A DNA stretch of 50,179 bases from Thermoplasmatales archaeon SW_10_69_26 (lineage in GTDB: Archaea > Thermoplasmatota > SW-10-69-26), in NCBI GenBank assembly GCA_003009755.1, contig PXUB01000012.1, forward strand, positions 6,770 to 56,948, given 5' to 3'. Within the stretch, counting starts at the first letter, position 1, and each line of letters starts with the position of its first letter. This document shows positions 5,299 through 50,021 of the stretch, in pieces. Under the pieces are notes generated by a model. That model did no database searches and was not told the DNA's origin. It saw nothing but the letters and a program-made list of their open reading frames with translations. The position numbers and the translations under genes are program-made.

Positions 5299-7551
5299 TC
5301 AGGGCCGGGCGTCCAGCCACGGGTCGAAGCAGACCTCGGCCCCATCCGTGGAGATCGCTTGCCCCTCGCCGTCGGCCACGGTGCCGGTGCAGGCGTCGGC
5401 GACGTCCCCGCTGGGACCGGACGCGTGGCCCCACCAGTTCTCGCGAGCGTCGACGGGCTCGGCCAGGTCCTGGGCGTGCAGCCCCTCCTCGGTGTTCCCA
5501 GCGATCGCGTTGGCCGCCAGCGTCAGGTCCGCCGGCTGGCCGAGGAGCCCACCCTGCGCCCAGACGCCGACCGCGTTCGCCGTGACCTGGCTGTCGTGGA
5601 CGGCCACGTCCTCGTTGGCCCGGTAGAGCCCGAGGCCGCGATCGTAGCCGGACACCGTCGCGTCGGCCACATGGGCGTCCTCGGTGTCCCAGATCGCCAG
5701 CCCGGTGACCGCCTCGTCCTGGACCGCGTCGAGAGGGTGCGAGCTCGGTCCGGCGATGGCGGCCTGACGGACCGTCGCGTTGCGGGCCTCGATGACGCGC
5801 AGCCCGCCGCCGGCGTTGGCCGCCAGCTGGGCCGTCTCGACGTCGGTCTCGGTGCCGCGGACGTCGATCCCGAACCCGTCGTTGCCCGTGGCGTGGCTGT
5901 CGCGGACCTCGGCGTCGAGCGAGGAGCCGACGACGAGGCCGTGCAGAGCGTTGCGGTGGGCCTCGATGTCGCGAAGCTGGGCGTCGAGGGAGCCCCCGTA
6001 GACGCCGATCCCGAACCCCTCGTTGTCGGAGGCCTCGTTGCCGATCAGGCGGGTCCCCTCGGAGCCGGTGGCCGCGAGGCCGGCGGCGGCGAAGAGGCCG
6101 GCGTCGAACCCGCTGCCGGTCACGGTCGCGTTCCGGATCGTGGTGGATCGGGCATCCGTGACCACGATCCCGGACGAGGGCGCGGCGTCGTGCACGGCGG
6201 TGTCGGTGACGCGAGCGGCCTTCGTCCCGTCGAGCACGATCCCCGAGCGGGTGGCCTCGACCGTCGCCTCGGTGACGTGCACGCTGGTGCTGTCGACGGC
6301 GTGGATCCCGTAGGCCGCGTCCTGCACGTGCACGTCGTCGATCCGGACGCCGGCGGTGTCGACGAGCACGGCCTGGCCCACCGGTTCCTCGATCTGGAGG
6401 CCGCGGTCGGCGTGGTGGTAGACGAGCGGTTGCCCGTTCACCTGGTTGGCTTCGACGTCGTGGACGTAGTGCTCTTGGGTGTCGCCGGTGAGGGCCAGCC
6501 CGCCGCCCGTCATGGCGTTGCCCTGGATGCGGAGATCGGAGGCTTCGTCGACGTGGATCGCGAGGTTGTCCTGCACGCCGTCGACGCGGTTGTCGCGGAT
6601 CAGCGCGTCCTGGGAGAGCTGGACGCGGATCGCCTCGTAGGTGGCCTCGGTCACCTCGTTGCCGACCACGCGGGTGGCCTCGTCGGCGTCCAGGACCCAC
6701 AGCCCACGGTAGGCTTGCCCGACGCGGTTGTCGACGACGGCCACGTCGTCGGTCCCGGACGTGATCACGCCGCTGGACACGGTGAGAGCGACGGCGTTGT
6801 CCCGCACGGTCACGTCGTGGCCGTCGAGGACGACGACGCCGCCCATCGTGGCCGCCGCGACGTTGCTCTCGACGGTCGCGTTGCCGACCGCGTCGAGCAC
6901 GACCCCGCTTGCGCCCGGCGCGGACGGGGCCGAGGAGGCGCCAGTGCCGGTCACGACGTTGTCGCGGACGACCACGTGGGCCTGGGTGCCTTCGATGCGG
7001 ATCGCCTGGTTCGGGGCAGCGACGAGATCGTTGGGCACCTCCCCGCACCACCGCTCGACGCCGGGAACGATGATGCAGGTGGGGATCCCCTGGGAGTTGC
7101 CGGTCGCCTCGATGCACCAGCCCTCGATCACGTAGGGGTTGGCCTCGGTGCCGTCCCCGGCGACGACACCGCTGCCCGGCCGGTAGGTCGGCTCACCCGT
7201 CAGCGGGTCCTCGCCCAGGATGAAGCCCTGCGGGCCGACCTCCTCGGTGATCTCGATCGGCGGGTGCGGGCTGCAGGCGTCGAGATCCTCGGCCGTGATG
7301 CCCGCCTCCGGCACCGGTTCGAGGCCATCGGTGGGCATCGTGGGCATCGATCGGACACTGTCCAGACCCTCGAGCGCGAGGGACCGATCGACGTCTGCGT
7401 CGGCCAGGCCCGTGGCGAGGTTCGCGCTGTCGGCGATCGGCTCGCGGACAGGCGCGCTCGGCGAGGGAGCGGCGAGGGCGAGGCTAGAGAGGCCGACGAG
7501 CGCGAGCGCGGCGGCGAGCCAGGCGTGCCGGGAGGCGACCATGGGCGCCAC
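5299..7551 (-). CDS. Secreted right-handed parallel beta-helix (NosD/pectin-lyase-like) protein
   Basis: Signal peptide; N-cap GDGTEANPYVIEGW; repeated V-x-x-N-x-V beta-helix turns; C-cap DARENWWGHASGP...FDPWL. Confidence 0.85.
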   Translation of the reverse strand: MAPMVASRHAWLAAALALVGLSSLALAAPSPSAPVREPIADSANLATGLADADVDRSLALEGLDSVRSMPTMPTDGLEPVPEAGITAEDLDACSPHPPIEITEEVGPQGFILGEDPLTGEPTYRPGSGVVAGDGTEANPYVIEGWCIEATGNSQGIPTCIIVPGVERWCGEVPNDLVAAPNQAIRIEGTQAHVVVRDNVVTGTGASSAPSAPGASGVVLDAVGNATVESNVAAATMGGVVVLDGHDVTVRDNAVALTVSSGVITSGTDDVAVVDNRVGQAYRGLWVLDADEATRVVGNEVTEATYEAIRVQLSQDALIRDNRVDGVQDNLAIHVDEASDLRIQGNAMTGGGLALTGDTQEHYVHDVEANQVNGQPLVYHHADRGLQIEEPVGQAVLVDTAGVRIDDVHVQDAAYGIHAVDSTSVHVTEATVEATRSGIVLDGTKAARVTDTAVHDAAPSSGIVVTDARSTTIRNATVTGSGFDAGLFAAAGLAATGSEGTRLIGNEASDNEGFGIGVYGGSLDAQLRDIEAHRNALHGLVVGSSLDAEVRDSHATGNDGFGIDVRGTETDVETAQLAANAGGGLRVIEARNATVRQAAIAGPSSHPLDAVQDEAVTGLAIWDTEDAHVADATVSGYDRGLGLYRANEDVAVHDSQVTANAVGVWAQGGLLGQPADLTLAANAIAGNTEEGLHAQDLAEPVDARENWWGHASGPSGDVADACTGTVADGEGQAISTDGAEVCFDPWLDARP

Positions 7552-7609
7552 GCCGCCCAGCGCCCTCTTGGCTGTTCGGGTCCAGGCGCTAGGCGCTCGC
7601 GAACCGACG

Positions 7610-8446
7610 TCAAACGGGTTCGACGAGCATCGTCACGTCGGCGGCGGGCGCCGAGTGCGTCAACGAACCAAGCGAGACCCGGTCGACGTGGGGCGCGTGA
7701 TCCGCCACGGTGCCCAGCGTGATGCCGCCGCTGGCCTCGACGGTGAGGCTCGGTTCCAGGCGTTTCAGCAGCTCCACGAGGTCCCCCAGCCCCTCGGGGT
7801 CGACGTTGTCGAGCAGCACGCCGTCGGCGCTGGCGCGGGCGACGGCGCGGGCTTCGTCGGCGGTCTCGGCCTCGACGATCACCGTCTGGTCCCCCGCGTT
7901 CGATCGGGCGGCCTCGACGGCTTCGTCGACGGAGACGAACGCCAGGTGGTTCTCCTTGACGAGCACCGAGCCGGCGAGGTTGTCCCGGTGAGGCCGACCG
8001 CCGCCCAGGCGCACGGCCTCGTGCTCGCGCTCGCGCAGACCGGGCGTCGTCTTGCGGGTGGCCAGCACCTCGCACTCGGCATCGGTCTCGTCCACCCGGT
8101 CCACGATCTCGGCGGTGCGGGTCGCGATGCCGGACAGGTGGGCCAGCACGTTCAGCGCGGTGCGTTCCCGTGCCAACAACGGGTGGGCTGGACCGTGGGC
8201 CTCGGCCAGCAGCTCGCCGGCGTCGACCCGCTGGCCGTCCTCGACCTCGGGGTCGACGGTGACGCCGTCGGTCTCGAGCACCCGGCAGGCGGTGTCGAGC
8301 CCGGCGACGACGAGCGGTTGCTTTGTGCAGATCTCGGCCTCGGCCTCGGCGTCTTCGGGGATGAGGGACCGCGAGGTGACGTCCTCCTCGGCGCGGTCCT
8401 CGCTCAGCCACGGCCCGATCGGGTCCTCGCCCATCGAGGCGGGCAT
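7610..8446 (-). CDS. nadC: Nicotinate-nucleotide pyrophosphorylase (quinolinate phosphoribosyltransferase)
   Basis: ERTALN, TRKTTPGLR, HR, LLDN, EASGGIT and GSLTHSA motifs. Confidence 0.95.
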   Translation of the reverse strand: MPASMGEDPIGPWLSEDRAEEDVTSRSLIPEDAEAEAEICTKQPLVVAGLDTACRVLETDGVTVDPEVEDGQRVDAGELLAEAHGPAHPLLARERTALNVLAHLSGIATRTAEIVDRVDETDAECEVLATRKTTPGLREREHEAVRLGGGRPHRDNLAGSVLVKENHLAFVSVDEAVEAARSNAGDQTVIVEAETADEARAVARASADGVLLDNVDPEGLGDLVELLKRLEPSLTVEASGGITLGTVADHAPHVDRVSLGSLTHSAPAADVTMLVEPV

Positions 8447-33016: not shown

Positions 33017-33600
33017 ATGACCCTGATCGGCACGTCGACGAACGTGCTGGCCTCCGGCATCGGCCAGGCGTTCGCGGGGATCGAGGCCTTCGACATGTTT
33101 TTCTTCACGAAGGTCGGCATCGTGGTGTTGCCGGTCGGTGAGCTGCACGCGTCCATCCGGTGGGACATCGTGTTCCTGCTGGCCGGCGTCATCCCCCCAC
33201 CGGCTTGGCCTTGGACCACACGGGAGCGGCTCAGGGCATCGCGACCTGGATCATCACGCAGACGATGGGCCGACCCCCACGGGCGATGCTGGGCATCTTC
33301 GACGCGCTGACGGTCGTGATGACCCAGATCCCCTCGAAGAACGCCAGCCTCGCCCTCGTGCTCCCGATCGTCGTCGACGGCCCAGCAGCTGTCCCTGAAC
33401 CCGTTCACGTTCGTGCTCGGCGTCACCTTCGCCGCCTCGATGGGGGTCCTCACCCCGATCGGCTACCAGTCGAACCTCATGGTGTACGGCCCGGCGAGCA
33501 CCGGTTCACCGACGTCTTCAAGGTCGGCCTGCCGCTGCTCGCCATCCTGGGCGTCGTCAACGCGTTCCTGCTGGACTGGTACTGGCCGCTGACCGGCTGA
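33017..33600 (+). pseudogene. Fragmented SLC13 / DASS di-/tricarboxylate permease
   Basis: TLIGTSTNVLASG, WDIVFLLAGVIP, TPIGYQSNLMVYGP and FKVGLPL occur in different frames; the N-terminus and central domains are missing. Confidence 0.8.
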
Positions 33601-33654
33601 GCCGATCACTGGCGCTTCGATAGCGCTCGACTGCGAGATGTTCGGCAGATCGAA

Positions 33655-33667
33655 TCCGGCAGTCTAG
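33655..33667 (-). mobile_element. Isolated terminus of the MITE-like family, overlapping the stop codon of the KaiC-kinase gene
   Basis: TCCGGCAGTCTAG is the exact reverse complement of CTAGACTGCCGGA at 50081-50093. Confidence 0.45.
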
Positions 33668-36177
33668 TGGGTCTCGAGGCCCGAGGCACTCGCATCCAGG
33701 AGCTCGATCGTGAATCGCGTGCCCTCGCCGACCTCGGTGTCCAGCTCGATCTTGGTCCCATGCCGTTCGGCGACCGTCGCGCAGATCGCCAACCCCAGGC
33801 CGGCGTGCTCTGAGTCCTCGGTGCCTCCCTCCAGCATCGCGGAGATCTGCTCACGCGTCTCGTCGGGGATGCCCGGACCGTCGTCGGCCACGCTGAACCG
33901 CCAGGTCGTCCCCGAGCGGTTCGCGGTGACCTGAACGTGAACCGGCTGGTCGGGATCCTTGTGCTCGATCGCGTTGACGACGAGGTTCTGCACGTACTGG
34001 CTGAGCATGGTGCGGTCCCCGTGCACGGTCGGCAGCTGCTCGCGACTCACCTCGACGTCCTCGTGCTGCAAGAGCAGTTCGACGTTCGACAGACCGTCCT
34101 CGACGACGCTGTCGAGGTCGACGGGTTCGAGCTCGGTATCGGCGTGGACCGCGCGGGTATAGTTACGGAGCGCATCGAGACGATCGGTCAGCCGGTCGGC
34201 TCCCGTCTTGACGATGTCGAAGAACTCCCGGGCATCGCCGTCCAGCTGGTCGCCTGCCTCCCGTTCCGTGAGATCGATGAAGGAACGGATCATCCGGATC
34301 GGTTCCTTCAGGTCGTGGCCGAGGACCGAGCCGAGGAAGGCGAGCCGACGGTGGAGGTCCTCGACCTTCCGCGGCTGTGTCCGATCCTCGACGGTGACCA
34401 GATGAACGCCCTCGTCGTGGGCCCCCGCGCTCAGGGTCCGCATCTGGCCCCACCTCAGCAACCCCTCCGGGGTTCGGAACTGGAGCATGGCATCGTCCTC
34501 GACCGCGGGCAGGCCCAGATCCTCGTCCACGAGCTGGCCGGGATCGCGGCCGAAGAACCGACGGGCCGCGGGGTTCGCCGCCAGGACCGTGCCCTCGTCG
34601 TCGAGGGCCAGGATCGGTGTGGGGACGCGCTGGACGAGATCGTCGATCCAGGCGTGACGGGCCTCGAGCTCGGGGTAGCGGGTGATCAGCTCCTCGATGA
34701 CGGTTCCCGTCTTCACGGCTCGTCCTCCCTCGAGGCTTCCTTGCAAGATCCCCCGGCCTTTCACCCGCGAGCCGAGGGCAAGCCCCTCGTCGCCGATCTC
34801 GATCTCGCGGACGGAGGGATCGTGGTCGCTGCCCCGCATCTTGAGGACGGTGAAGATGCGCTTGATCTCCTCCCCTGTCTCCAGGTACCGCAGGAGGAGG
34901 ATCGTGTCGGAGAGGGCGGACATGTGTCCCTTGTAGACGGAGACCGGAGGCTCGAAGACGGGTTCCATCATCCCGTACCAGGTGAGCAGCTCCTTGTCCT
35001 TGGTCAAGGCGTTGAGACCGATGAGGAACTCGCGGAAGCTGCGCTCTCCGGCGGTGTAGGCGAGCGAGGAGACGGTGTCGAGCACCAGGCGCTCGGGCTC
35101 GAAGGCCTCCACCTCGTCCTTGATGTCGAGAAGGTGTCCCCCCAGGCTCCGAGATTCGGGATACGTGGAGATCAGCCGAAGGAGCTCCCCCGTGTGGGGC
35201 GTCAGGTCGTGGCCGATCCCCGCCGCGTTCTCGAGCACTTGCTCGCGGCTCTCCTCGAACGTCAGGTACAGCGTCCGCTCGTTCTCCTCGACCCCTTCGT
35301 GGGCGAATTGGGTCATCATCAGCGTCATGCCGACGCCGGTCGCTCCCGAGATCAGGGTCGTGGATCCGCGGAACGGACCGCCCCCCAGCATCTCGTCCAG
35401 CCCCTCGGTTCCCGTGGATCCGCGAGAACTGAACCCGGCGTGGGTGAGCTTCGTGGCCGACAAGGGCAAAAGGATCGGGCCCTTCCCGGGTCGGATCGAG
35501 AGGGGGACCTCCCCCGCCTCGTGATCGCTGCCCCGGATCTTGAGCACCTCCAGGGTTCGGCGCCGGTTCTCCCCGTCGCTGCGGTTCCGCAGGACGATGA
35601 GCGCGTCGGCGACGAACTTCTCGACGCCCGGCCCGTGCAGCGAGCCTGGATCGGATTGCGTGGAGGCGTTGCTGGCGAGCATGGTGACGTTCTCCTCTCG
35701 AGCCACTTGGCTGAGAGACGCCATCGCGCGGCGCACCGCTTGGGGATCCCCGTAGCGCTCGAAGAGCACGTTCACGGCGTCGAGGAAGACCCTGTCGGCG
35801 TCCACCTGCTCGACGGCGTGCTTCGTGCGGGAGACCAGGCCCGCCAACTCGTAGTCGCCGATCGTCTGAGTCTTCGAGATCGTCTCCGGCCGGGCGTCGA
35901 CCAAGCAGAGATCGCCGCGGGCTCTAGCGCCGGGGAGATCCCAACCGAAGCCCGACAGGTGGCTCAGGAACGCCTCGGGGTCCTCCTCGAAGACGACGGC
36001 CACGCCCGGTTCACCGTCCTCGCACCCGGCGGCGAGGAACTGCCCGCCGAGCACCGTTTTCCCCGTGCCTGTCCCCCCGTGGACGAGCGTGATGCTTCGA
36101 GCCGGGATACCGCCCCGGGTCACCGTCTCGAGGCCTGCGATGCCGGTGGGGAGCCCCTCGGTCGGACCGTTGTTCAC
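33664..36177 (-). CDS. kaiC: Double-domain KaiC fused in frame to a PAS-histidine kinase (837 aa)
   Basis: CI GGTGTGKT, FEE and LKIRG; CII GATGVGMT, FEES, HMSALSDTILLLRY and LKMRG. Then a PAS domain, H-box GHDLKEP, NLVVNA, DDGPGI and GLGL. The GTG start overlaps the kaiB TGA and is preceded by GAGGGGGG. Confidence 0.88.
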   Translation of the reverse strand: MNNGPTEGLPTGIAGLETVTRGGIPARSITLVHGGTGTGKTVLGGQFLAAGCEDGEPGVAVVFEEDPEAFLSHLSGFGWDLPGARARGDLCLVDARPETISKTQTIGDYELAGLVSRTKHAVEQVDADRVFLDAVNVLFERYGDPQAVRRAMASLSQVAREENVTMLASNASTQSDPGSLHGPGVEKFVADALIVLRNRSDGENRRRTLEVLKIRGSDHEAGEVPLSIRPGKGPILLPLSATKLTHAGFSSRGSTGTEGLDEMLGGGPFRGSTTLISGATGVGMTLMMTQFAHEGVEENERTLYLTFEESREQVLENAAGIGHDLTPHTGELLRLISTYPESRSLGGHLLDIKDEVEAFEPERLVLDTVSSLAYTAGERSFREFLIGLNALTKDKELLTWYGMMEPVFEPPVSVYKGHMSALSDTILLLRYLETGEEIKRIFTVLKMRGSDHDPSVREIEIGDEGLALGSRVKGRGILQGSLEGGRAVKTGTVIEELITRYPELEARHAWIDDLVQRVPTPILALDDEGTVLAANPAARRFFGRDPGQLVDEDLGLPAVEDDAMLQFRTPEGLLRWGQMRTLSAGAHDEGVHLVTVEDRTQPRKVEDLHRRLAFLGSVLGHDLKEPIRMIRSFIDLTEREAGDQLDGDAREFFDIVKTGADRLTDRLDALRNYTRAVHADTELEPVDLDSVVEDGLSNVELLLQHEDVEVSREQLPTVHGDRTMLSQYVQNLVVNAIEHKDPDQPVHVQVTANRSGTTWRFSVADDGPGIPDETREQISAMLEGGTEDSEHAGLGLAICATVAERHGTKIELDTEVGEGTRFTIELLDASASGLETH

Positions 36178-36473
36178 GACGAGGCCCCCCTCGTCTCGCG
36201 GTCGAGAGGCGGCAGACCCAGCGCGCGGCGCACGACGCTCTCGTCGGTCAAGTCCCCGATCACCCGCACGGACGGGGAAGGCTCCTCCCGGATCAGGGCC
36301 GGGACGGCCAGGATCCGCGCCTCCTCTGCTCGTTCTGGCATTTCCAGGATGTCGATCACCTCGAGTGTTCCCTCGACCCCATCCGAGTCGAGCAGCGATC
36401 GCAGGGCCCTGATCGCCCTCGGACCCGGAGGATGGGCATCCGCCACGTAGAGGCTCAGACGAAGGGGTTCCAA
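36174..36473 (-). CDS. kaiB: KaiB-family protein
   Basis: LRLSLYVA...LEVIDILEMPERAEEARILAVPALIREEPSPSVRVIGDLTD follows the KaiB pattern (LKLYVAG...VIDV..NPQLAE..KILATPTL...P.R.IIGDLSD). TTG start with SD-like GAGGTGG. Confidence 0.9.
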   Translation of the reverse strand: MEPLRLSLYVADAHPPGPRAIRALRSLLDSDGVEGTLEVIDILEMPERAEEARILAVPALIREEPSPSVRVIGDLTDESVVRRALGLPPLDRETRGASS

Positions 36474-36771
36474 ACAGCCACCTCTCAGCTTCGAGAGCCA
36501 TGGCCGCCCGACGCTTAACGAAGGCCAAGAGGTCCCCCCCTCGCCTCAACGAGCGCTTGGCGGGGACCCGGTCGGACGAGCCGAGGAGGGGCCCTCGGCG
36601 GAGCCTGCGGCGTCCCGAGCGCGGTCGGCTGAGGCTCGAACGCATGGTCCGTCGCTGTCGGGGGGGAGATGGGGGGGCCAGCCTACGGTCAGCGCCCTTC
36701 CGATGCAGCGGGACGCCGTCAGGGCCTCGTCCAGACGGCCAGGCGAGGGAGAGCGTGAGGAGCCGAGGCCG

Positions 36772-38118
36772 TCATCCAACCACTTGCTCCCACTTGTTCA
36801 GCTCCAGCACCTCGCTCAACGACGAGCCCTCCTGGATCTCGGTGCGCAGGCGGTCCTCCTTCTCGCGGATCTCGACGGCGCGGTTGGCGATCTCGACGAG
36901 CTCCTCTTGGGGCACGACGACGACGCCGCAGTCGTCGGCGAGCACCCAGTCGCCGGTCCTGACGGGTTGGTCGCCGGCGGTGATCTCGACGCCGATCTCG
37001 CCGAAGCCCTTCGGGTCGCCGGCGTTGGGGACCTCGTGCCGGGCCCAGGCGGGGAACCCCATCTCGCGGATGTCGTCGACGTCGCGGATGGCGCCGTCGA
37101 CGACGACGGCGGGCACGTCGTTCTGCTCGCAGCTGTGGGAAGCCAGCTCGCCCCAGACCGCCTGATCGCCGCCTTGGGCGTCGACGACGAGGATGTGGCC
37201 GTCGTCGGCTTGCTCGATCGCCTCGACCGGCTTGGCCCAGTCGCCGTTTTTGGTGGAGACGGTGAGCACGGGGCCGGCGACCTTGTGGTCTTCGCCGACG
37301 GGGTCGAGGCCTTGGAGGACGCCGCCGCGGTGCCGGGCGTCGGAGAGGTTGGGGGTCGACACGGACAGCAGGGCCTCGCGGATCTCGGCCTCGTCGTAGC
37401 GTTTCGTGCCGTGGGACGCGACGGATTCGCCGGTCGCGATGGCTTGCTGGATGTCGCGGACGGCTTGGGGGATGTCGGGGGCTTTCGTGATGGCGCCGCC
37501 GACGACGACGATGTCGGTGCCGTGCGAGACGACCTCGGGCGCGGTCTCGCTCGTGATGCCGCCGGCGCACAGGATCGGGGTGTCGACGGCCTCGGCGACC
37601 TCGCGCACGAACGCGTAGTCGGGTTGGCCGCGCATCTGCTCGTCGATGCCGACGTGCAGGCTGACGTAGCTGGCCCCCATCTGTTCGGCTTCGCGCGCTC
37701 GCTGGACGACGTCCTCGACCCCGATCATGTCGACGACGACCTCGGCGCCGTACTTGCGTCCGGCGCGCACGGCCTCGGTGATCGTCTCGTCGCTGGCCGA
37801 GCCGAGGATCCCGACCATGCTGGCGCCGGCCTTGGCGGCGATCTCGCACTCGAGCTGGCCGGTGTCGGCGGTCTTCATGTCGGCGAAGATCGCCTGCTCG
37901 GGGAACCGCTGGCGCAGCTGGCGCACCGCTTCCAGGCCCTCGGACTTGATCAACGGCGTGCCGGCCTCGAGGATGTCGACGCCGCCCTCGACGGCCTGCT
38001 CGGCCATCTCGAGGGCGCGGTCGAGGTTCATCAGGTCCAAGGCGACCATCAGCTCGGCCGGTGCGGCCTGGGGTTGGGCGTCGTCGGTGTCCCCCTCGGG
38101 AGCGGTCGTCGGGGCCAT
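36772..38118 (-). CDS. hps: 3-hexulose-6-phosphate synthase fused to an RraA-like domain
   Basis: VALD, EAGTPLIK, ADMKTADTG, HVGIDEQ and VVGGAIT motifs; C-terminal AVWGELA...VVDGAIRD...GD.VLADD.GVVV. Confidence 0.9.
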   Translation of the reverse strand: MAPTTAPEGDTDDAQPQAAPAELMVALDLMNLDRALEMAEQAVEGGVDILEAGTPLIKSEGLEAVRQLRQRFPEQAIFADMKTADTGQLECEIAAKAGASMVGILGSASDETITEAVRAGRKYGAEVVVDMIGVEDVVQRAREAEQMGASYVSLHVGIDEQMRGQPDYAFVREVAEAVDTPILCAGGITSETAPEVVSHGTDIVVVGGAITKAPDIPQAVRDIQQAIATGESVASHGTKRYDEAEIREALLSVSTPNLSDARHRGGVLQGLDPVGEDHKVAGPVLTVSTKNGDWAKPVEAIEQADDGHILVVDAQGGDQAVWGELASHSCEQNDVPAVVVDGAIRDVDDIREMGFPAWARHEVPNAGDPKGFGEIGVEITAGDQPVRTGDWVLADDCGVVVVPQEELVEIANRAVEIREKEDRLRTEIQEGSSLSEVLELNKWEQVVG

Positions 38119-38197
38119 CGCCGCGAGCAGGCGCGAGCCCGGGGAAAAGCGTTCGGGCTCCCCCACGTCCAAACGGGAGCACGCCGTGGGGCCTTGC

Positions 38198-39214
38198 ATG
38201 TCCTTGCCCGTGGATCGGTTGCCGGCCGAGGACCTCGCCGTCGTGTGCCTGCCCGATCTGTTCCTCGACCACGTGATCGAGCTGCCGGAGATCGACGAGG
38301 CCGAGGAGACGATCGGCCGCATCCACAGCCAGGGCGGCGGCAAGGTGCTCGACGTCCCCCAGCAGGTCGTCCCCGGCGGCAACGCGGCCAACGCCGCGCA
38401 CGCGCTGGCTCGCCTGGGCCTGGAGGTCGACCTGGCGGGGCGGACGAGCCAGCGAGGCAAGGCGTTCTTCCAGTGCACGATCGCCCGCGACGGCGTCGGT
38501 CTGTCGCTGGTGCGCGAGGACGGCGAGCTGGCCGCCACCTCGGTGCTGGCCTACGGGCCCGAGGGCACCAACGTGATGCTCAACGATCCCGGCTCGGTCG
38601 AGGGCTACGGACCCGAGGATCTGCGCGAGGCCGACGAGCAGGCGATCCGGGCGGCGGACGCGGTGCTCGTCGGGAACTGGGCGAGCATGACCGAGCACGG
38701 GACCGAGCTGGTCCGCCACGTCGTCGACGTCGCCGATCGGGCCGACACGTGGACCTACCTGGATGCGGCCGATCCCTCCCGGCGCGAGGACGGCGAGCAG
38801 CTCGTGGCCGCGCTCGCGGACGTTCCGCTGGACGTGTGGGCGATGAACGACGCCGAGGTGGAGCTGTTCAGCGGTGAGGCGGGTCTCGAGGCCGGTGCCC
38901 GGGCGTTGGCCGAGCGGACGGGGGCTCGCGTGGACGTGCACAGCGGCGAGACGGCGGTCTCGGCCCGCTCGGGCGTGGTCGCCGAGGCCGAGACCTTCGA
39001 CGTCGAACCTCGCCACCTGACGGGGGCAGGGGACGCGTTCAACGCCGGCAACCTCGTCGGTGACCTGCTCGGCCTCGACCCGGGCGAGAGGCTGCGGCTT
39101 GCGCACGCGGTCGCGGCGGCCACGATCTCGCACCCGGACGCCCGCCCGCCGGATGCCGAGGCCTTGGCAGCGTTGGAGACCCAGGCCCAGGACCCGACGG
39201 CCCGACCGACGTGA
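38198..39214 (+). CDS. PfkB-family carbohydrate kinase
   Basis: PGGNAANAAHALARLG, N..E and TGAGDAFNAG motifs. Confidence 0.9.
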   Translation: MSLPVDRLPAEDLAVVCLPDLFLDHVIELPEIDEAEETIGRIHSQGGGKVLDVPQQVVPGGNAANAAHALARLGLEVDLAGRTSQRGKAFFQCTIARDGVGLSLVREDGELAATSVLAYGPEGTNVMLNDPGSVEGYGPEDLREADEQAIRAADAVLVGNWASMTEHGTELVRHVVDVADRADTWTYLDAADPSRREDGEQLVAALADVPLDVWAMNDAEVELFSGEAGLEAGARALAERTGARVDVHSGETAVSARSGVVAEAETFDVEPRHLTGAGDAFNAGNLVGDLLGLDPGERLRLAHAVAAATISHPDARPPDAEALAALETQAQDPTARPT

Positions 39215-43585: not shown

Positions 43586-43646
43586 CGCCACCGACGAGGA
43601 GCAGGGGTCCCGGTCGGGATGACGTCCACTCTCCCACGCTTTATCA

Positions 43647-45539
43647 ATGGGGTACAGGCGAACGTCACCCTCGGGTGACCGATTGGCTCTGCTGCCCACG
43701 CTCGGATTGGCTGCGGTCGAGGGCGCCATCGTGGCGCTCGTCGGCCTGTTGCTGTTCCACGCCCACCGACGCGTAGGCATCATCCCCTTCATCGGGTTCT
43801 TCGCGCTGGTCGCGTTGCTCCTCCCGCTGACGGTCACCGACGCGAGCCTGGACCTGGCGGCACTGGGCACGGTCCCGCACGCGCAAGCCGCGCTGGTCCC
43901 CGTGCTCGTGTCCTTCGTCGTGCTCGTGCACCTCACGCGCGGCTGGCGGAACGCCCAGCTGGCGGCGCTCACGATCCTCGGCGCCGGCGGGTTCATCGGC
44001 CTGGCCTCCGTGCTCGAGACCTACCTGCCGATCATATTGGGCTCCTCGGCGGCGCCCTCGGAGGTGCTGGTGCCCGTCGCGGCCGGTGCCGCCGTGTGGG
44101 CGGCCGCCGGGCTGGCCTCGATCACGCTGGCCGGTATCGCCGAGTTCACGCGCAAGGTCCCGGCCCTGACCGGCCTGTTCCTCGTGACGTTCCTCGGCGT
44201 CGCCTTGGCCGGCACGATCCACCTGGCGTTCATGCGCGCCGGCTTCCCGTTGGGGAACGCGACCGGGTGGGCGCCCTTCGCGGGCCCGCTTTTGGCGGGC
44301 ATCCCGTCCGTCGTGATCTTGATCGGGTACGGCGCCAACCGCCTGTCCGGCATGTGGGAGGAGACCCGCCGGGCGCTGTTGTCCCGCGAGCCGCTGGGTA
44401 GCGACTCCCAGATCGAGAGGGCCCACGCCCTGCAGGGCGCCAAGCAGCAAGCCGAGGAGCAGACCCGCCGCGAGGTCGACGCCTACCGCCAGCTGATCGA
44501 GACCGACGACCGCGGCGCCTACGTCTGCAACCCCGAGGGGCGGATCACGTACGCCAACCAGGGCCTCAACCGCGTGCTCGAGCGCCCCGACGAGGAGCTG
44601 TCCGGCGAGAACATCCGTCACCTGATGGGCGACACCGACGAGCGCGGCCGCCCGCAGTTCGTCGACTACCCCGTCAAGCCCGGTCGCCATCGGGCGCGCG
44701 TGCGGCTACCGAACGGGCACCAGCGCTCGATCGAGGTCACCGTGCGCCCCACCGAGGACGGGAACCTCTACGGCCGCGTGCGCGACCGCACCGAGGACGT
44801 GCTGCGGCGCGAGCTGGAGGAGCAGAAGGAGCTGGCCGAGTTCTACGTCGACCTGTTGCGCCACGACATCGGCAACGACGTGACGACGCCGCTGAACTAC
44901 CTGGCCATGCTCGAGCACTCCGACAACCTCTCCGAGAAGGAGGAGCGCTACGTGCAGTCCAGCCGGGTGGCCGTCGAGAACATCGCCGATCTGCTGGACC
45001 GGGTGAACGTGCTGACCGGGCTGCAGGACGTGGATCCGGAACCGACTGACGCCGGCCGCATCATGGAGGACGTCGTCGAGCAGTTCCGCGAGAAGCACCC
45101 CGAGCAAGTGTCGATCGCGTGGGATCTGCCCGACGAACCCGTGTACGTCGCCGGGCTCCCGCTGCTCGAGACGGCGTTCATCAACCTCGTCGGCAACGCG
45201 ATCCGACACGCCGGCTCCGATGCCGAGGTCGCGTTGGGCGCCCGCCGCAAGGAGAACACCTGGGAGGTGGTCGTCGAGGACAACGGGCCCGGCATCCCCG
45301 ACGAGGACAAGGACGCGATCTTCGAGCGCGGCGACCGCGACGAAGCCAAGGGCGGCCAGGGCCTGGGCCTGTACATCGTGAAGACGATCGTGAGCGCGCT
45401 CGGCGGCAAGGTCTGGGTCGAGGATCGCATCGAGGGCAAGCCCGAGGCCGGCGCCAGCTTCCGCGTGCGCCTGCCGGCCACGAGCTCGCAGGCCGACCAG
45501 CTGGGCAGCCAGTCCAGCGTGCCGGTCCAGGACGAGTGA
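43647..45539 (+). CDS. Membrane-bound PAS-domain sensor histidine kinase
   Basis: About 7 TM helices; PAS (EGRITYAN); H-box LRHDIGN; NLVGNA, EDNGPGIP, IFERG and GLGL. The start may be TTG 43683. Confidence 0.9.
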   Translation: MGYRRTSPSGDRLALLPTLGLAAVEGAIVALVGLLLFHAHRRVGIIPFIGFFALVALLLPLTVTDASLDLAALGTVPHAQAALVPVLVSFVVLVHLTRGWRNAQLAALTILGAGGFIGLASVLETYLPIILGSSAAPSEVLVPVAAGAAVWAAAGLASITLAGIAEFTRKVPALTGLFLVTFLGVALAGTIHLAFMRAGFPLGNATGWAPFAGPLLAGIPSVVILIGYGANRLSGMWEETRRALLSREPLGSDSQIERAHALQGAKQQAEEQTRREVDAYRQLIETDDRGAYVCNPEGRITYANQGLNRVLERPDEELSGENIRHLMGDTDERGRPQFVDYPVKPGRHRARVRLPNGHQRSIEVTVRPTEDGNLYGRVRDRTEDVLRRELEEQKELAEFYVDLLRHDIGNDVTTPLNYLAMLEHSDNLSEKEERYVQSSRVAVENIADLLDRVNVLTGLQDVDPEPTDAGRIMEDVVEQFREKHPEQVSIAWDLPDEPVYVAGLPLLETAFINLVGNAIRHAGSDAEVALGARRKENTWEVVVEDNGPGIPDEDKDAIFERGDRDEAKGGQGLGLYIVKTIVSALGGKVWVEDRIEGKPEAGASFRVRLPATSSQADQLGSQSSVPVQDE

Positions 45540-45815
45540 GGGAGGACACCTCGCCCGGCGGAGGCCGCGGGAAAACCATGGCGTCGTGAAGGCCGGGTCG
45601 AGAGAGATTCGGCCGGAGGGAGGGACGACCGAGACCCGCGGAAGTTCCACTCCTCTCCTGCCTGTGGGTTTGACCCTCCCGACGAGCAACGGGTGCTGGT
45701 ACGCGGGTCCGGGTTTCGACCTTGCCAACCCGCCATTCGAGATCCCCAGTTACCGAGGCGCGAGGAACCCAAAATTCTATTTATCCGTGCCAGGACCGTA
45801 CCCCCGGAGGCACCG

Positions 45816-48800
45816 ATGGAGGCACCCACGAACCCACTGGCCCGTTCGTTGGCCCTGGCGGTTGTGGCCGGCGTTTGCTGTGCGCTCGCCGTCGCCGCGC
45901 CGGCTCATGCGGGCGAGACGCTCGTCGTGGACGACGACAGGAAAGACTGCCCCGACGCAGAGACCACCTCGATCCAGGCGGCGGTCGACAACGCTAGCGA
46001 AGGCGACCGCGTCGAGGTCTGCCCCGGGAACTACCCCGAGTCGATCACCGTGGACACCGACGCCGTCGAACTCGTCGGCGACCAGGCGACCGTGGTCGAC
46101 CCCGGGGGTAGTGAGGTCGGCGTGGGCGTGCGCGCGGAGAACGTCACCGTCTCTGGCCTCGCTGTCGAGGGACACGACACGGGGCTGCTCGTGGTCGGGA
46201 ACGAGTCCCGCATCGTGGAGAACGAGATCCGGGCCAGCGACCACGGCCTGCTGTTGGCAACCGTCTACGATCCGACCGACAACGTCCAGGTGTCGTCCTC
46301 GCTGCGCACCACGGTCGCCGACAACATGTTCCGTCACCCGGGCCACCCTGACGAGCGGGGTCAGATGGGGATCGGGGACTTCGACATCGGGATCTCGACG
46401 ACGGCCGACGAGTTGCTCGTCGACCTCGTCGAGTCGCTCGAGTCGGGTGAGATCGAGAACGCGACCAATCCCGAGGACGCCGTGCGACCGCTGCAGAATC
46501 GGATCGAGAATAACACCGTCGAGGGGTATCATCGGGCGCTGGCTCTCTTTGGAGCCCGCGAAGACCGAATCGAGAACAACACCCTGCGGCCCGCGGGCGA
46601 AGCCGCGTTCCCCGTCTTCGGGGATCCCCCGACGGGCCTCTTCGCCGAGCGATCCTCGGGCAACCGGCTCGTGGCGAACGAGATCGTGGGTCCCAACGGG
46701 ACTGGAATCCACTTGGACCACTCTACCGGATTCCGGCTCGAAGACAACGAGATCCACGACCGCCCGACGGGTCTACGAATCGACGGCGACAAGGACGCGG
46801 TCAATCACTACGACCACCAGATCACCCCCACGAACACCGTCGCAGGGGACCCGGTCGTCTTCTTCAACGGAGCGGAGAACCGGCGGGTAGAGGTCGGCGA
46901 CGTGGCCTTCGTGGGACTCGTAAACACGGCGAACGTGACCGTTGCCGACGCCGACGTGCACAGCCAGATCCTGATGGCCGCGGCCGAGGACAGCACGGTG
47001 CAAAACGCTACCGTCAGCGGCGAACAGCCGGCCGTGATTCGAGCCGGTAGCCACGGGAGCTCGATCGAAGGACTCTGGGCGGGAGCCGAGCTCCGCGAAG
47101 CCTTGGAGGTGGCCTACAGCGACGACGTGACAGTTCAAAACGCCACCCTTCGGGCCGTGGACGATTACAACGGCATCGATTCCCTCAACCTGTGGAGCCC
47201 CACCAACCTCACGGTCCGCGACAGTCGGCTGGGTGAAACCAACCTCCGCGGCGACTACGACGGCATCGCGTTCGTGAACAACACCGTCGACGGCGTCCTC
47301 ACCCCCGGCCGTGACACCCTTTCGATCTACCGCTGCGAGTACGCCGGGAACCCACTCTGCTCGGAACCCGGAGATCCGGTCCTCCTTCGAGACAACCGGT
47401 TCGTGTCCGACCCGTGGCGTGTCACCGACCAAGGGATCCCCGGAGAGCCGTTCTCTCCGGCGGTTTGGTCCCGGAACACCCCAATCGTAGTGGAAGACAA
47501 CACCGTCGAGGGCGCGAAGACCGCCTTCGACCTCGAGGGGGGCGACGAGGACCCGGAAGACGTCTACGAGATCGAGGCCCGCAACAACTCGTTCCAGTTC
47601 GTGCGAACCGCCCTCGACGTGAACCTCGCACAGGGCGCCATCGTGACAGGTAACGAGGTCCGGAACTCGGACGTCGGAATCCGGCTGCGTCCCGTGCTGG
47701 AGGACCCGCGGGTCGCCGACAACCGGTTTCGGAACGTTGCCAAGGTAGCGTTGCTCGTGTCGGCCGAGAACGCCACGCTGGTCGACAACGAGGTGCGAGA
47801 TTCCGGTGGAGCCATCGGGATCTCGACCTCGCAAGCCGAGGACGCCCGGATCTGGAACACCACGATCCAAGACACGGACACCTCGCTGAGCCTCGGAGCC
47901 TTCGTGGGAAATCTCGAGTCCTACGAGCACGAGATCCCGCGGAACAACACCGTCGACGGGAAGCCCATCATCTACGAGGTGGGCGCCCGAGACCGCGTCG
48001 TCGAGCCCCCCGAGGACCCCGGCTACGTAGGCTTCGTGCGGTCCAACAACGTGACCGTCCGTAACGTATCGCTCTCGAACGCCGGGGAGGGAGTGCTGCT
48101 CGTCGACAGCACCGACGTCCACGTCAAGGACGTTCGGGCCCGCGACAACGGCAACGGGATCGAGGTCGTTCAAAGCGACGACGTCGTGGTCGAGGACACC
48201 ACAGTTACCGACAGCGACGGCTTCGGTGTCGTCGTCCACTCGGCAGAGGACGAGGCGCGCTCCAACGATGTCGAGATCCGGGACAACCGGGTCGACCACA
48301 GCAGCCGCGCCGGGATCCGCGTCGACGAGGCCCGAGACGTGACCGTCGCCGACAATCGACTCTCGCGGAACTTCGACGACGAGGATTTCCGCAGGAACGA
48401 GCCCGGGATCCGTGTCCGGGACGTGGAGGACGTGAGACTGCAGGCCAACCGCCTGTACGACAGTCGGCAGGGGATCCGGGTCGGCAACCTCCCCGACGAT
48501 CCCTCGGGACCCGTCCGCGTCACCGACAACCTCGTCGAGGACAGCCTCAAGGCCGGCCTGACCGTGGAGAGCGGCGCCGACCCCGACCACGTCGTCGTCC
48601 GCGACAACGCGTTCGTGGACAACGAGATCGGCGTGGAACTCGACGCCGCCGGAATCCTCGACGCTCGCAACAACTCGTGGGGTGCCGCCGACGGTCCCAG
48701 CGGGCGCGCGGAGGACCCCAAGACGGGGGCTGTAGCGGACGGGAGCGGGGACAAGGTGGACGAGAACGTTCGCTTTGACCCCTGGAGAGAAGACCTGCCA

Positions 48801-50021
48801 CCGCGCATCGACCTCCCCGACCCCAACCCCGTGCGCGAGGGGGAGACGCTCGTCGTCGACGTGACCGCGTGGGATCCCGAGGGCGACGCGATCGACCTCT
48901 CGGTCCCCACCACGCCCGACGGGGCCACGTTCACCGACCGCGGCGACGGAACCGCCAGGCTCACGTGGACGCCTGGGCACGGGGACCGGGGCAGCCACGA
49001 CTTCGTGGTCCGAGCCGAGGCCGACGGCCTGTCGGCCCAGGCGGCGGCCACGATCGAGGTCCGGCCGGGGCTGGATGCGCCCGACGTGACGGTTCTCGAT
49101 CCCGTCATCGAGGCCGACCACCCCGTGACCGCGCTTTTGCCCGGCCAGGATCTCGTTCTGAGAGCCGACGCCGACGACGCCGACGGTGAGGTCGAACAGG
49201 TCACCCTTGGAACGGGCGAGGATCCCTCCACGCTGCGCGACGCCGAGCGCCGATCGGGGACGTGGGTGACCGGCCCCGTCTCCTTCGAGACCCCGGGCAC
49301 ATACGAGATCCACGCGAAAGCCGTGGACGACGACGGGCTCACCGGCGAGGCGCAGGCCACGATCGAGATCCGCGCCAACCGGCCCCCCGAGATCCGGCTG
49401 CGCTCGGAGCCGCTGGCGGTCGACGAGGTCCAACCCGAGGTCCGGATCGACGCCTCCCCCAGCCGGGATCCCGACGGCCACCACGTTCGGTCCCTCCTCG
49501 AGTTGCCCGACGGTCGCGAGGTCGAGTCCTCGTCCCCGATGGCCAGCCCCGAGCCCGTCAACTGGACGCCGCCGGGGGCCGGGGTCTACGAGGCCACCGT
49601 CACGCTCGAGGACCCTCGCGATGCGAGAACGACGTCGGCCGCGACAATCGAGGTGGACGACGCGATTACGGTTCCCGACTTGCGGGTCGTTCCCCGGGGT
49701 CCCAACCAACGCACCCACGTCGTCGGCCTCGTATTGAACGAGTCCGGCTCGGGGGTCGCGAACGCCGGCGTTGAGCTGACCGTGGACGTGCCGGGCAGTC
49801 CTCGTCCCACGACGGTGACGACGGTCGCCAACGACCAGGGCCTGTTCAGTCAGGCCCTACCCTTCGACGTGGGGGTCGGCGTCACGGGCCTGAACCTGGT
49901 CGGCGAGCACGGGCTGACCGTGCGGGCGGAGGCCGCAAACCAGTACGCGCTCGCCGGGGACGACGGGCAGGGCCCCGAGGTGGCGACGGTTCAGACGACC
50001 TATCACGTCGAGGCGACGTGA
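45816..50021 (+). CDS. Large secreted NosD-like beta-helix protein with C-terminal Ig/PKD-like domains
   Basis: SD GGAGG and a signal peptide; TSIQAAVDNA..GD.V.V.PG.Y.E; many beta-helix turns; DARNNSWGAADGP...FDPW; DPEGD, D.DG and S.DPDG Ig-like repeats. Confidence 0.88.
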   Translation: MEAPTNPLARSLALAVVAGVCCALAVAAPAHAGETLVVDDDRKDCPDAETTSIQAAVDNASEGDRVEVCPGNYPESITVDTDAVELVGDQATVVDPGGSEVGVGVRAENVTVSGLAVEGHDTGLLVVGNESRIVENEIRASDHGLLLATVYDPTDNVQVSSSLRTTVADNMFRHPGHPDERGQMGIGDFDIGISTTADELLVDLVESLESGEIENATNPEDAVRPLQNRIENNTVEGYHRALALFGAREDRIENNTLRPAGEAAFPVFGDPPTGLFAERSSGNRLVANEIVGPNGTGIHLDHSTGFRLEDNEIHDRPTGLRIDGDKDAVNHYDHQITPTNTVAGDPVVFFNGAENRRVEVGDVAFVGLVNTANVTVADADVHSQILMAAAEDSTVQNATVSGEQPAVIRAGSHGSSIEGLWAGAELREALEVAYSDDVTVQNATLRAVDDYNGIDSLNLWSPTNLTVRDSRLGETNLRGDYDGIAFVNNTVDGVLTPGRDTLSIYRCEYAGNPLCSEPGDPVLLRDNRFVSDPWRVTDQGIPGEPFSPAVWSRNTPIVVEDNTVEGAKTAFDLEGGDEDPEDVYEIEARNNSFQFVRTALDVNLAQGAIVTGNEVRNSDVGIRLRPVLEDPRVADNRFRNVAKVALLVSAENATLVDNEVRDSGGAIGISTSQAEDARIWNTTIQDTDTSLSLGAFVGNLESYEHEIPRNNTVDGKPIIYEVGARDRVVEPPEDPGYVGFVRSNNVTVRNVSLSNAGEGVLLVDSTDVHVKDVRARDNGNGIEVVQSDDVVVEDTTVTDSDGFGVVVHSAEDEARSNDVEIRDNRVDHSSRAGIRVDEARDVTVADNRLSRNFDDEDFRRNEPGIRVRDVEDVRLQANRLYDSRQGIRVGNLPDDPSGPVRVTDNLVEDSLKAGLTVESGADPDHVVVRDNAFVDNEIGVELDAAGILDARNNSWGAADGPSGRAEDPKTGAVADGSGDKVDENVRFDPWREDLPPRIDLPDPNPVREGETLVVDVTAWDPEGDAIDLSVPTTPDGATFTDRGDGTARLTWTPGHGDRGSHDFVVRAEADGLSAQAAATIEVRPGLDAPDVTVLDPVIEADHPVTALLPGQDLVLRADADDADGEVEQVTLGTGEDPSTLRDAERRSGTWVTGPVSFETPGTYEIHAKAVDDDGLTGEAQATIEIRANRPPEIRLRSEPLAVDEVQPEVRIDASPSRDPDGHHVRSLLELPDGREVESSSPMASPEPVNWTPPGAGVYEATVTLEDPRDARTTSAATIEVDDAITVPDLRVVPRGPNQRTHVVGLVLNESGSGVANAGVELTVDVPGSPRPTTVTTVANDQGLFSQALPFDVGVGVTGLNLVGEHGLTVRAEAANQYALAGDDGQGPEVATVQTTYHVEAT

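Follow-up and report, generated by a model that had tools for sequence, protein, structure and literature searches.

A probable KaiA-less kaiB–kaiC–histidine kinase operon in a halophilic archaeon, with a KaiC–kinase fusion confined to one assembly

Operons that join kaiC and kaiB to the gene of a PAS-containing histidine kinase have been described in Rhodopseudomonas palustris and Rhodobacter (excerpts of PMC4794148), and in Pseudomonas, KaiC co-precipitates with the kinase encoded next to it, for which the PAS domain suffices (excerpts of bioRxiv 10.1101/2022.01.26.477890). Among archaea, an earlier survey, as excerpted from PMC5520375, recorded KaiB in only four genera. Here, we analyzed a stretch of 50,179 nucleotides (the window) from Thermoplasmatales archaeon SW_10_69_26 (assembly GCA_003009755.1, contig PXUB01000012.1, positions 6,770 to 56,948 of the forward strand), in which kaiB overlaps kaiC on the minus strand and the kaiC frame continues without a stop into a PAS-histidine kinase. 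An earlier note, made from these letters, had taken the locus for a KaiA-less timer or switch with its output kinase hard-wired to KaiC. We conclude, at a probability of roughly 0.65, that it is a three-gene kaiB–kaiC–PAS/histidine kinase signaling operon of the known KaiA-less type in a halophilic archaeon and that the fused junction is private or spurious.

Like the operons of R. palustris and Rhodobacter sphaeroides (excerpts of PMC4794148 and PMC5520375), the locus has no KaiA and combines a two-domain KaiC, KaiB, and a PAS-HisKA-HATPase kinase in a tight cluster; unlike the purple bacterial operons, it belongs to an archaeon and has the order kaiB–kaiC–kinase. With cyanobacterial KaiABC plus SasA and CikA it shares homologous KaiB and KaiC and a histidine kinase as the read-out of the KaiC state, whereas KaiA and a KaiA-binding tail are absent, and in the kinase there is a PAS domain but nothing KaiB-like at the N terminus. 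The Pseudomonas KaiC is also encoded beside a PAS-containing kinase, and our model of a putative KaiC–kinase contact is taken from there; the Pseudomonas systems, as described in the excerpts, have no KaiB, with a response regulator of the single-domain kind nearby, whereas the window has KaiB and no receiver nearby.

The first gene of the cluster, kaiB (36174-36473, minus strand), encodes 99 residues from a TTG start and matches Pfam KaiB (PF07689; 3.1e-18, 65.7 bits versus a cut-off of 27). A cyanobacterial KaiB is its best match among solved structures (2e-12), and it stays below the NCBIfam circadian KaiB equivalog cut-offs (52.6 versus 110; 52.0 versus 145.3). Its stop codon TGA is overlapped by a GTG start (GTGA, within ...TCG TCG TGA / GTG AAC), from which 837 codons run without a stop from 36177 to a TAG at 33664 (minus strand), through KaiC domains CI and CII, PAS, HisKA, and HATPase_c. 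Pfam KaiC (PF06745) matches this frame twice (282.5 bits versus 26.6; best stretch at residues 10-233, second P-loop region at 270-381). KaiC proper, residues 1-480 (34738-36177, minus strand), is recognized by Pfam and NCBIfam and matches stand-alone KaiC at 100% or 93% identity as far as GIL(Q/R)G. Its 439.2 bits against NCBIfam PRK09302 (cut-off 408) identify it as a two-domain, full-length KaiC, and the cyanobacterial circadian equivalog TIGR02655 (circ_KaiC) is not reached (339.4 bits versus a cut-off of 546.25). Solved KaiC chains match it down to 1e-115, those of cyanobacterial type with about 320-390 bits and Rhodobacter KaiC with about 220; it is closer to the former, and it differs from Rhodobacter KaiC further in having no long C-terminal extension and a methionine in the CII Walker A motif.

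The rest of the frame is the histidine kinase of 350 residues (33664-34716, minus strand), which extends from a GTG of its own (V488) to the TAG stop; the 487 + 350 split of the earlier note counts the kinase from this codon (34714-34716). The genome (2.82 Mb in 49 contigs) is archaeal by its full-length small-subunit ribosomal RNA (SSU_rRNA_archaea, 1497.8 bits). KaiA (PF07688) has no match anywhere in this 95%-complete genome, and all 17 receiver domain matches in the genome lie on contigs other than that of the window. The description that we started from, namely a kaiB overlapping a double-domain kaiC, a frame left unbroken through PAS, HisKA, and HATPase in the window as given, no KaiA or receiver at the locus, and a KaiA-less kaiB–kaiC system in an archaeon, is borne out by these matches. 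The reading of the output kinase as hard-wired by evolution is not supported.

The closest relative of the window's KaiC, P0003, is a stand-alone KaiC of 490 residues and the top match in two independent protein searches. It is identical to window residues 1-480 at 444 of 480 positions (93%), after which P0003 ends IASPNDSGPP and the window reads SLEGGRAVKTG...; the peptide GSLEGGRAVKTG (residues 480-491) spans this junction. The 120 KaiC matches listed are all 486-545 residues long, and HisKA or HATPase_c occurs in the precomputed Pfam list of none of them. We compared the junction with Logan contigs of four public halite runs (X1-X4) over window positions 33600-36600. Each of the three contigs that bridge the junction, from X2, X3, and X4, exceeds the window by a net 32 bases. 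X3 and X4 have one bridging contig each, in which 33 letters replace base 34738 and the coding strand reads G-IASPNDSGPP-TGA; the translated insert is exactly the end of P0003 plus a stop. At the X2 junction, 41 letters replace 9, again a net 32. X1, the best-matching run (0.93 of sampled words), probably comes from the source sample or a sister of it. One of its contigs shows 0 differences from the window over 34739-36600 and then goes on into 34 letters absent from the window, the 30 visible ones being similar to the X3/X4 insert and reading, if translated, IDSSTTTDP.... Another X1 contig stops exactly at 34737, none of all 8 X1 records bridges the junction, and the X1 bin mean of 9.23 agrees with base 34738 having no cover. 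This spot shows at least three different versions of the tail among strains.

The longer versions consist of a 10-codon tail with TGA, a 21-base spacer (AGC...GCC, with GGAGG 7 bases before GTG), and a separate kinase GTG. What the window lacks is the last 10 codons of kaiC together with two of the three stop-codon bases, and among the sequences compared it is only in the window assembly that a stop is absent at 34737-34739. What looks like a linker, SLEGGRA (residues 481-487; 34717-34737, minus strand), is the translated kaiC–kinase intergenic spacer, complete with the GGAGG 7 bases before GTG. Two homologues of the kinase that stand alone, P0141 (390 residues, 43%) and P0146 (370 residues, 38-39%), begin near V488. 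Because the linker is the spacer of the longer versions and stand-alone kinases start near V488, the ancestral state is, as judged from these sequences, kaiC–stop–spacer–kinase; with a net 32 bases missing, the kaiC frame reads across the spacer and on into the kinase. The earlier note had named a stop-restoring indel near the junction as the finding that would overturn its fusion, and in substance such an indel exists, as the net 32 extra bases that relatives and strain variants have at 34738, on the upstream edge of the linker. The KaiC–kinase fusion, read in this way, is private to one assembly and not an evolved or conserved design.

The gene neighborhood of relatives points in the same direction. 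KaiC and the kinase share one open frame in none of the 9 genome loci whose match reaches residue 810 or beyond, four of which have the kinase directly 3′ of kaiC, and in none of the 10 metagenome loci checked. Among 41 related genomes, a match over residues 1-837 was found only in the window's own. The same three-gene adjacency occurs in bacterial loci (L001, L004, L009, and L083), and the kaiC stop is separated from the next start by 6-13 bases in L001, L004, L006, and L083. In all five kai clusters from the archaeal class of the host, three of them cut by the end of the locus, a PAS- or GAF-sensor kinase is a separate neighbor. The window itself presents an operon of three adjacent genes on one strand with minimal spacing, GTGA between kaiB and kaiC and a kaiC–kinase spacer that is 21 bases long in the variants and nil in the window. 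Since the neighborhood recurs in bacteria and in five of five in-class kai clusters, the PAS-histidine kinase is very likely the signaling partner of KaiC.

Other arrangements were seen in the same survey. In L001 (a Roseiarcus metagenome-assembled genome, 3812-3823) and L083 (a metagenome contig, 1913-1930), the open reading frame (ORF) of the PAS-kinase is in frame with the kaiC stop, with its ATG 6 or 12 bases on; one change in that stop would fuse kaiC to the kinase. The gene after kaiC in L093 (7388-8425, a metagenome contig) starts, in translation, with a KaiB-like stretch (…LYVAG…DVLEDP…LATP…), which suggests a SasA-like KaiB-domain protein. Two contigs from the class of the host (G005:C193 and G016:C102; loci L168, L179, and L184) carry kai clusters with two kaiB copies, in the orders kinase–kaiB–kaiC–kaiB and kaiC–kaiB–kaiB–kinase.

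We examined the active-site residues of KaiC by alignment. The CI Walker A motif GGTGTGKT (36055-36078, minus strand) is intact, and its lysine, K40, is present in every one of the 43 KaiC sequences aligned. The CII Walker A motif reads GATGVGMT (35323-35346, minus strand), in which, by alignment to solved KaiC, M284 (ATG at 35326-35328) takes the place of K294, the Walker A lysine of the KaiC C-terminal domain (excerpts of PMC3823767). The same 43 sequences have K 40 times, R once, and M twice in this column, the methionines being those of the window and its 93% relative P0003 only; a regular-expression survey of KaiC-like proteins counted K 225, V 2, R 1, and M 1 at this position. The phosphosite equivalents (34915-34920, minus strand), again aligned to solved KaiC, are S420, which keeps the serine of S431, and A421, at which the threonine of T432 is lost. 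Among the 43 sequences, the first site is S in 39, and the second is T in 30, S in 8, A in 3, and V in 2. The catalytic glutamates (E64/E65 and E308/E309) and arginine fingers (R215 and R448) are conserved in both halves. P0003, an independent sequence, has both the Lys-to-Met and the Thr-to-Ala change, and its KaiC ends 10 residues after GILRG, with no A-loop or KaiA-binding tail.

The window's KaiC therefore differs from cyanobacterial KaiC at the equivalents of both K294 (Met) and T432 (Ala), and of what a clock-competent KaiC would have, Walker A lysines in both CI and CII and both phosphosites, neither pair is complete. With CII lacking its Walker A lysine and one of two phosphosites, a cyanobacterial phosphorylation cycle is unlikely; the changes in CII, as far as alignment can tell, argue against a canonical phosphorylation clock, and the "timer" half of the original proposal is weakened. 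A KaiC without the CII Walker A lysine would offer a natural test of KaiC working with CI alone.

Within the kinase part, Pfam finds a partial PAS match at residues 514-562 (24.5 bits versus 22.6) in a domain that spans about residues 500-610, HisKA at residues 618-676 (26.0 bits, slightly below the 26.9 cut-off), and HATPase_c at residues 720-826 (79.1 bits versus 26.4). The kinase motifs are an H-box GHDLKEP (H621), an N-box NAIEH (735), G1 DDGPGI (765), and G2 GLGLAI (793); P0141 and P0146 share the H-box histidine H621 without change, and the motifs mark this as a HisKA-type sensor kinase. Pfam KaiB, the mark of a KaiB-like (thioredoxin-fold) N-terminal domain, has no match in the kinase part, so the kinase is not of the SasA type. 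When KaiC residues 1-485 (alignment of 43 rows) and the 125-residue PAS region (alignment of 3 rows) were modeled as a complex, the score was 0.00 versus a mark of 0.32, which weighs neither for nor against a contact.

If the locus is read as a three-gene operon, the known systems suggest how it may act. A KaiC hexamer would be driven by the intact CI ATPase, and KaiB would bind on the CI side as a state-dependent partner. KaiC may contact the kinase via the PAS domain, as in Pseudomonas, and the kinase would then switch between autokinase states and pass phosphate to an orphan receiver encoded elsewhere in the genome. Such a system would be an ATP/ADP-gated or KaiB-gated switch or an hourglass and not a self-sustained clock.

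Several points weigh against this reading. The fused junction was found in none of the four halite runs, a count that leaves its absence unproven because rare variants are lost from Logan contigs. In the X1 extension, four letters are not visible, the visible stretch falls one base short of the X3/X4 insert, and an in-frame TGA is unconfirmed; the X2 insert is known by its length and not letter by letter. A deletion of 32 bases is rarely made up by an assembler with no reads behind it, and the missing stretch has no flanking repeat to explain a shortcut, which makes a real fused allele quite possible. That KaiC binds the kinase, that the kinase is active, and that KaiB binds are presumed from homologues. 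Some P-loop nucleoside triphosphatases tolerate odd Walker A residues, and CII may thus be less dead than its motif implies.

We put the odds at about even between an assembly error and a deletion that is very recent but truly present in some cells. The alternative that survives best, to which we give a little under an even chance, is that the junction is purely an artefact of assembly or binning at a hypervariable spot containing a G-run and that the organism has three separate genes. It is at exactly this spot that the three or more tail versions differ among strains and that the contigs of the best-matching run break, base 34738 being covered by no X1 contig; moreover, nowhere in the assembly does the tail motif (24 letters, up to 3 mismatches) have a match, so the assembly retains no second allele. 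An artefact sits less well with the missing 32 bases having no flanking repeat, with De Bruijn assemblers normally requiring reads that contain the junction, and with the long intact genes through the rest of the window.

A 32-base deletion that is real and segregates in one halite population, so that the same strain occurs with split and with fused KaiC–kinase, is possible but less likely than not. The clean X1 break on both sides, exactly at 34737/34739, is also compatible with a mixed population. Were this true, we would be seeing a gene fusion as it arises, a second and independent case of what became fixed long ago in an unrelated archaeal KaiC clade, and it would have happened on a KaiC with an already dead CII P-loop, so that only the CI ATPase and KaiB were left for signaling. 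Even a fused allele could still yield free kinase from the intact GGAGG-GTG. In either case, gene fusions from single assemblies in metagenome bins require read-level confirmation.

The KaiC-PAS-kinase architecture is not new. Among 18 proteins scanned (of 150 matches listed), P0157 (1120 residues), P0168 (818 residues), and P0171 (995 residues) have the order KaiC ×2-(PAS/GAF)-HisKA-HATPase_c, and eight more are KaiC ×2-PAS(n) without kinase domains. A search with P0168 returned at least 14 fused clusters (KaiC + HisKA + HATPase_c) among 120 matches listed, and the named matches beside the fused rows come from Thermoplasmatota and DPANN archaea. These archaeal fusions (P0157, P0168, P0171, P0271-P0279, P0281, and P0283) have the same domain order as the window's 837-residue frame, whereas their identity to the window protein is 27-28% and they recur in many clusters, the window fusion being found in one assembly. 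A literature search located no described KaiC–kinase fusion on point, the archaeal KaiC survey of Makarova et al. 2017 lying outside its reach, and the excerpts of PMC5847659 name only KaiC-REC and HalOD1 combinations.

We placed the window's KaiC in a quick LG+G4 tree of 77 rows, for which we took, of 100 loci with a high-scoring segment pair of at least 400 residues, the ones up to L080, together with five loci from relatives, leaving out four own-genome copies, L081, L181, L183, L185, and other metagenome loci. Seven fused rows group with Thermoplasmata and Woesearchaeota rows. The window and P0003 lie across a branch marked 99* from these fused rows, among bacterial and in-class rows and on a long stem (0.74); an unstarred link (93) joins them to P0123 and a row of the same family, at a place where, as the tool warns, long branches meet. 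The KaiC part of the window is thus not of shared descent with the P0168 group, and its nearest relative is unfused. As far as the tree can tell, the window's fusion is independent of the archaeal fusion family. KaiC-(PAS)-HisKA-HATPase fusions, for which the earlier note had suggested a search of domain architectures, are genuine elsewhere, in an unrelated archaeal clade. Their recurrence nevertheless matters here as Rosetta-stone support for the neighbors acting as a complex.

It remains to ask whether the window's fusion could be real and selected, as one KaiC–kinase polypeptide that places six kinase modules on the CII face of the hexamer and couples the KaiC state directly to autophosphorylation. 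The frame is open with all kinase motifs intact, the deletion keeps the kinase in frame and takes away just the short variable KaiC tail, viable fusions exist in P0157, P0168, P0171, and the other clusters, and a mixed population would also produce the X1 break. We nonetheless regard a selected fusion as improbable. The junction is missing from the four runs, the X1 contig of the same strain carries a tail, no fused form of this lineage is among the matches listed in two protein searches, and there is none in 40 related genomes; furthermore, the linker is an untouched spacer that keeps its ribosome-binding motif and start codon, which leaves no time for adaptation. A fused, hard-wired clock output would have been striking if true; the evidence favors an ordinary kaiB–kaiC–kinase operon.

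Of 146 coding differences in all, 33 are shown, 17 of which change a residue and 16 of which are silent, a ratio that suggests constraint that is relaxed yet present. At window position 35984, an X2 contig (depth 5.3) is without 1 base inside kaiC (at about codon 65); either the frame is broken in this variant or the contig is in error. Decay of the kai locus, in which loss of the CII P-loop, loss of the phosphosite, the gene-end deletion, and a frameshifted neighbor would be steps of pseudogenization, could call on this X2 deletion, the 17 replacements, the Lys-to-Met and Thr-to-Ala changes in CII, the long stem of the window and P0003, and the frameshifted permease remnant adjoining the cluster, but it is an improbable account, because in strains whose DNA differs by about 5-7% all three genes retain open frames and every remaining catalytic motif, and 17:16, although taken from a partial sample of the differences, is far from the ratio of about 3:1 expected without selection.

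The surroundings of the cluster describe its host. The window also encodes PurP-type DUF1246/DUF1297 domains, a RIO kinase, and archaeal-type aspartyl- and leucyl-tRNA synthetases, the proteins of 27 ORFs are acidic (D+E 10-21%, K+R 4-15%), and window DNA is present in halite metagenomes; none of the 9 runs listed for it is of RNA. The host is a halophilic archaeon from halite. KaiB occurs in 6 of the 21 species genomes that represent its archaeal class in the collection searched; the locus adds a KaiB-containing, full-length KaiC with a dedicated kinase to this small halophilic class, whose habitat has extreme day-night cycles. Recent horizontal transfer, judged by composition, was rejected: the G+C content at third codon positions is 0.80 for kaiB, 0.885 for kaiC, and 0.872 for the kinase, compared with 0.895 ± 0.045 for 26 window ORFs.

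Directly 3′ of the kinase gene and convergent to it lies the remnant of a membrane permease C terminus (33017-33600, plus strand), which can be read only with at least three switches between two frames and whose longest piece has no Pfam match; it looks like a frameshifted pseudogene. Immediately 5′ of kaiB, on the same strand, a frame of 588 residues (36772-38538, minus strand) combines an OMPdecase/HUMPS-type domain with an RraA-like aldolase domain. A second PAS-HATPase_c kinase is encoded 7 kb from the kai cluster (43623-45539, plus strand). Finally, the window contains the genes of two very large NosD/beta-helix proteins (5299-7632, minus strand, and 45540-50021, plus strand), the larger of which is an open frame of 1493 residues.

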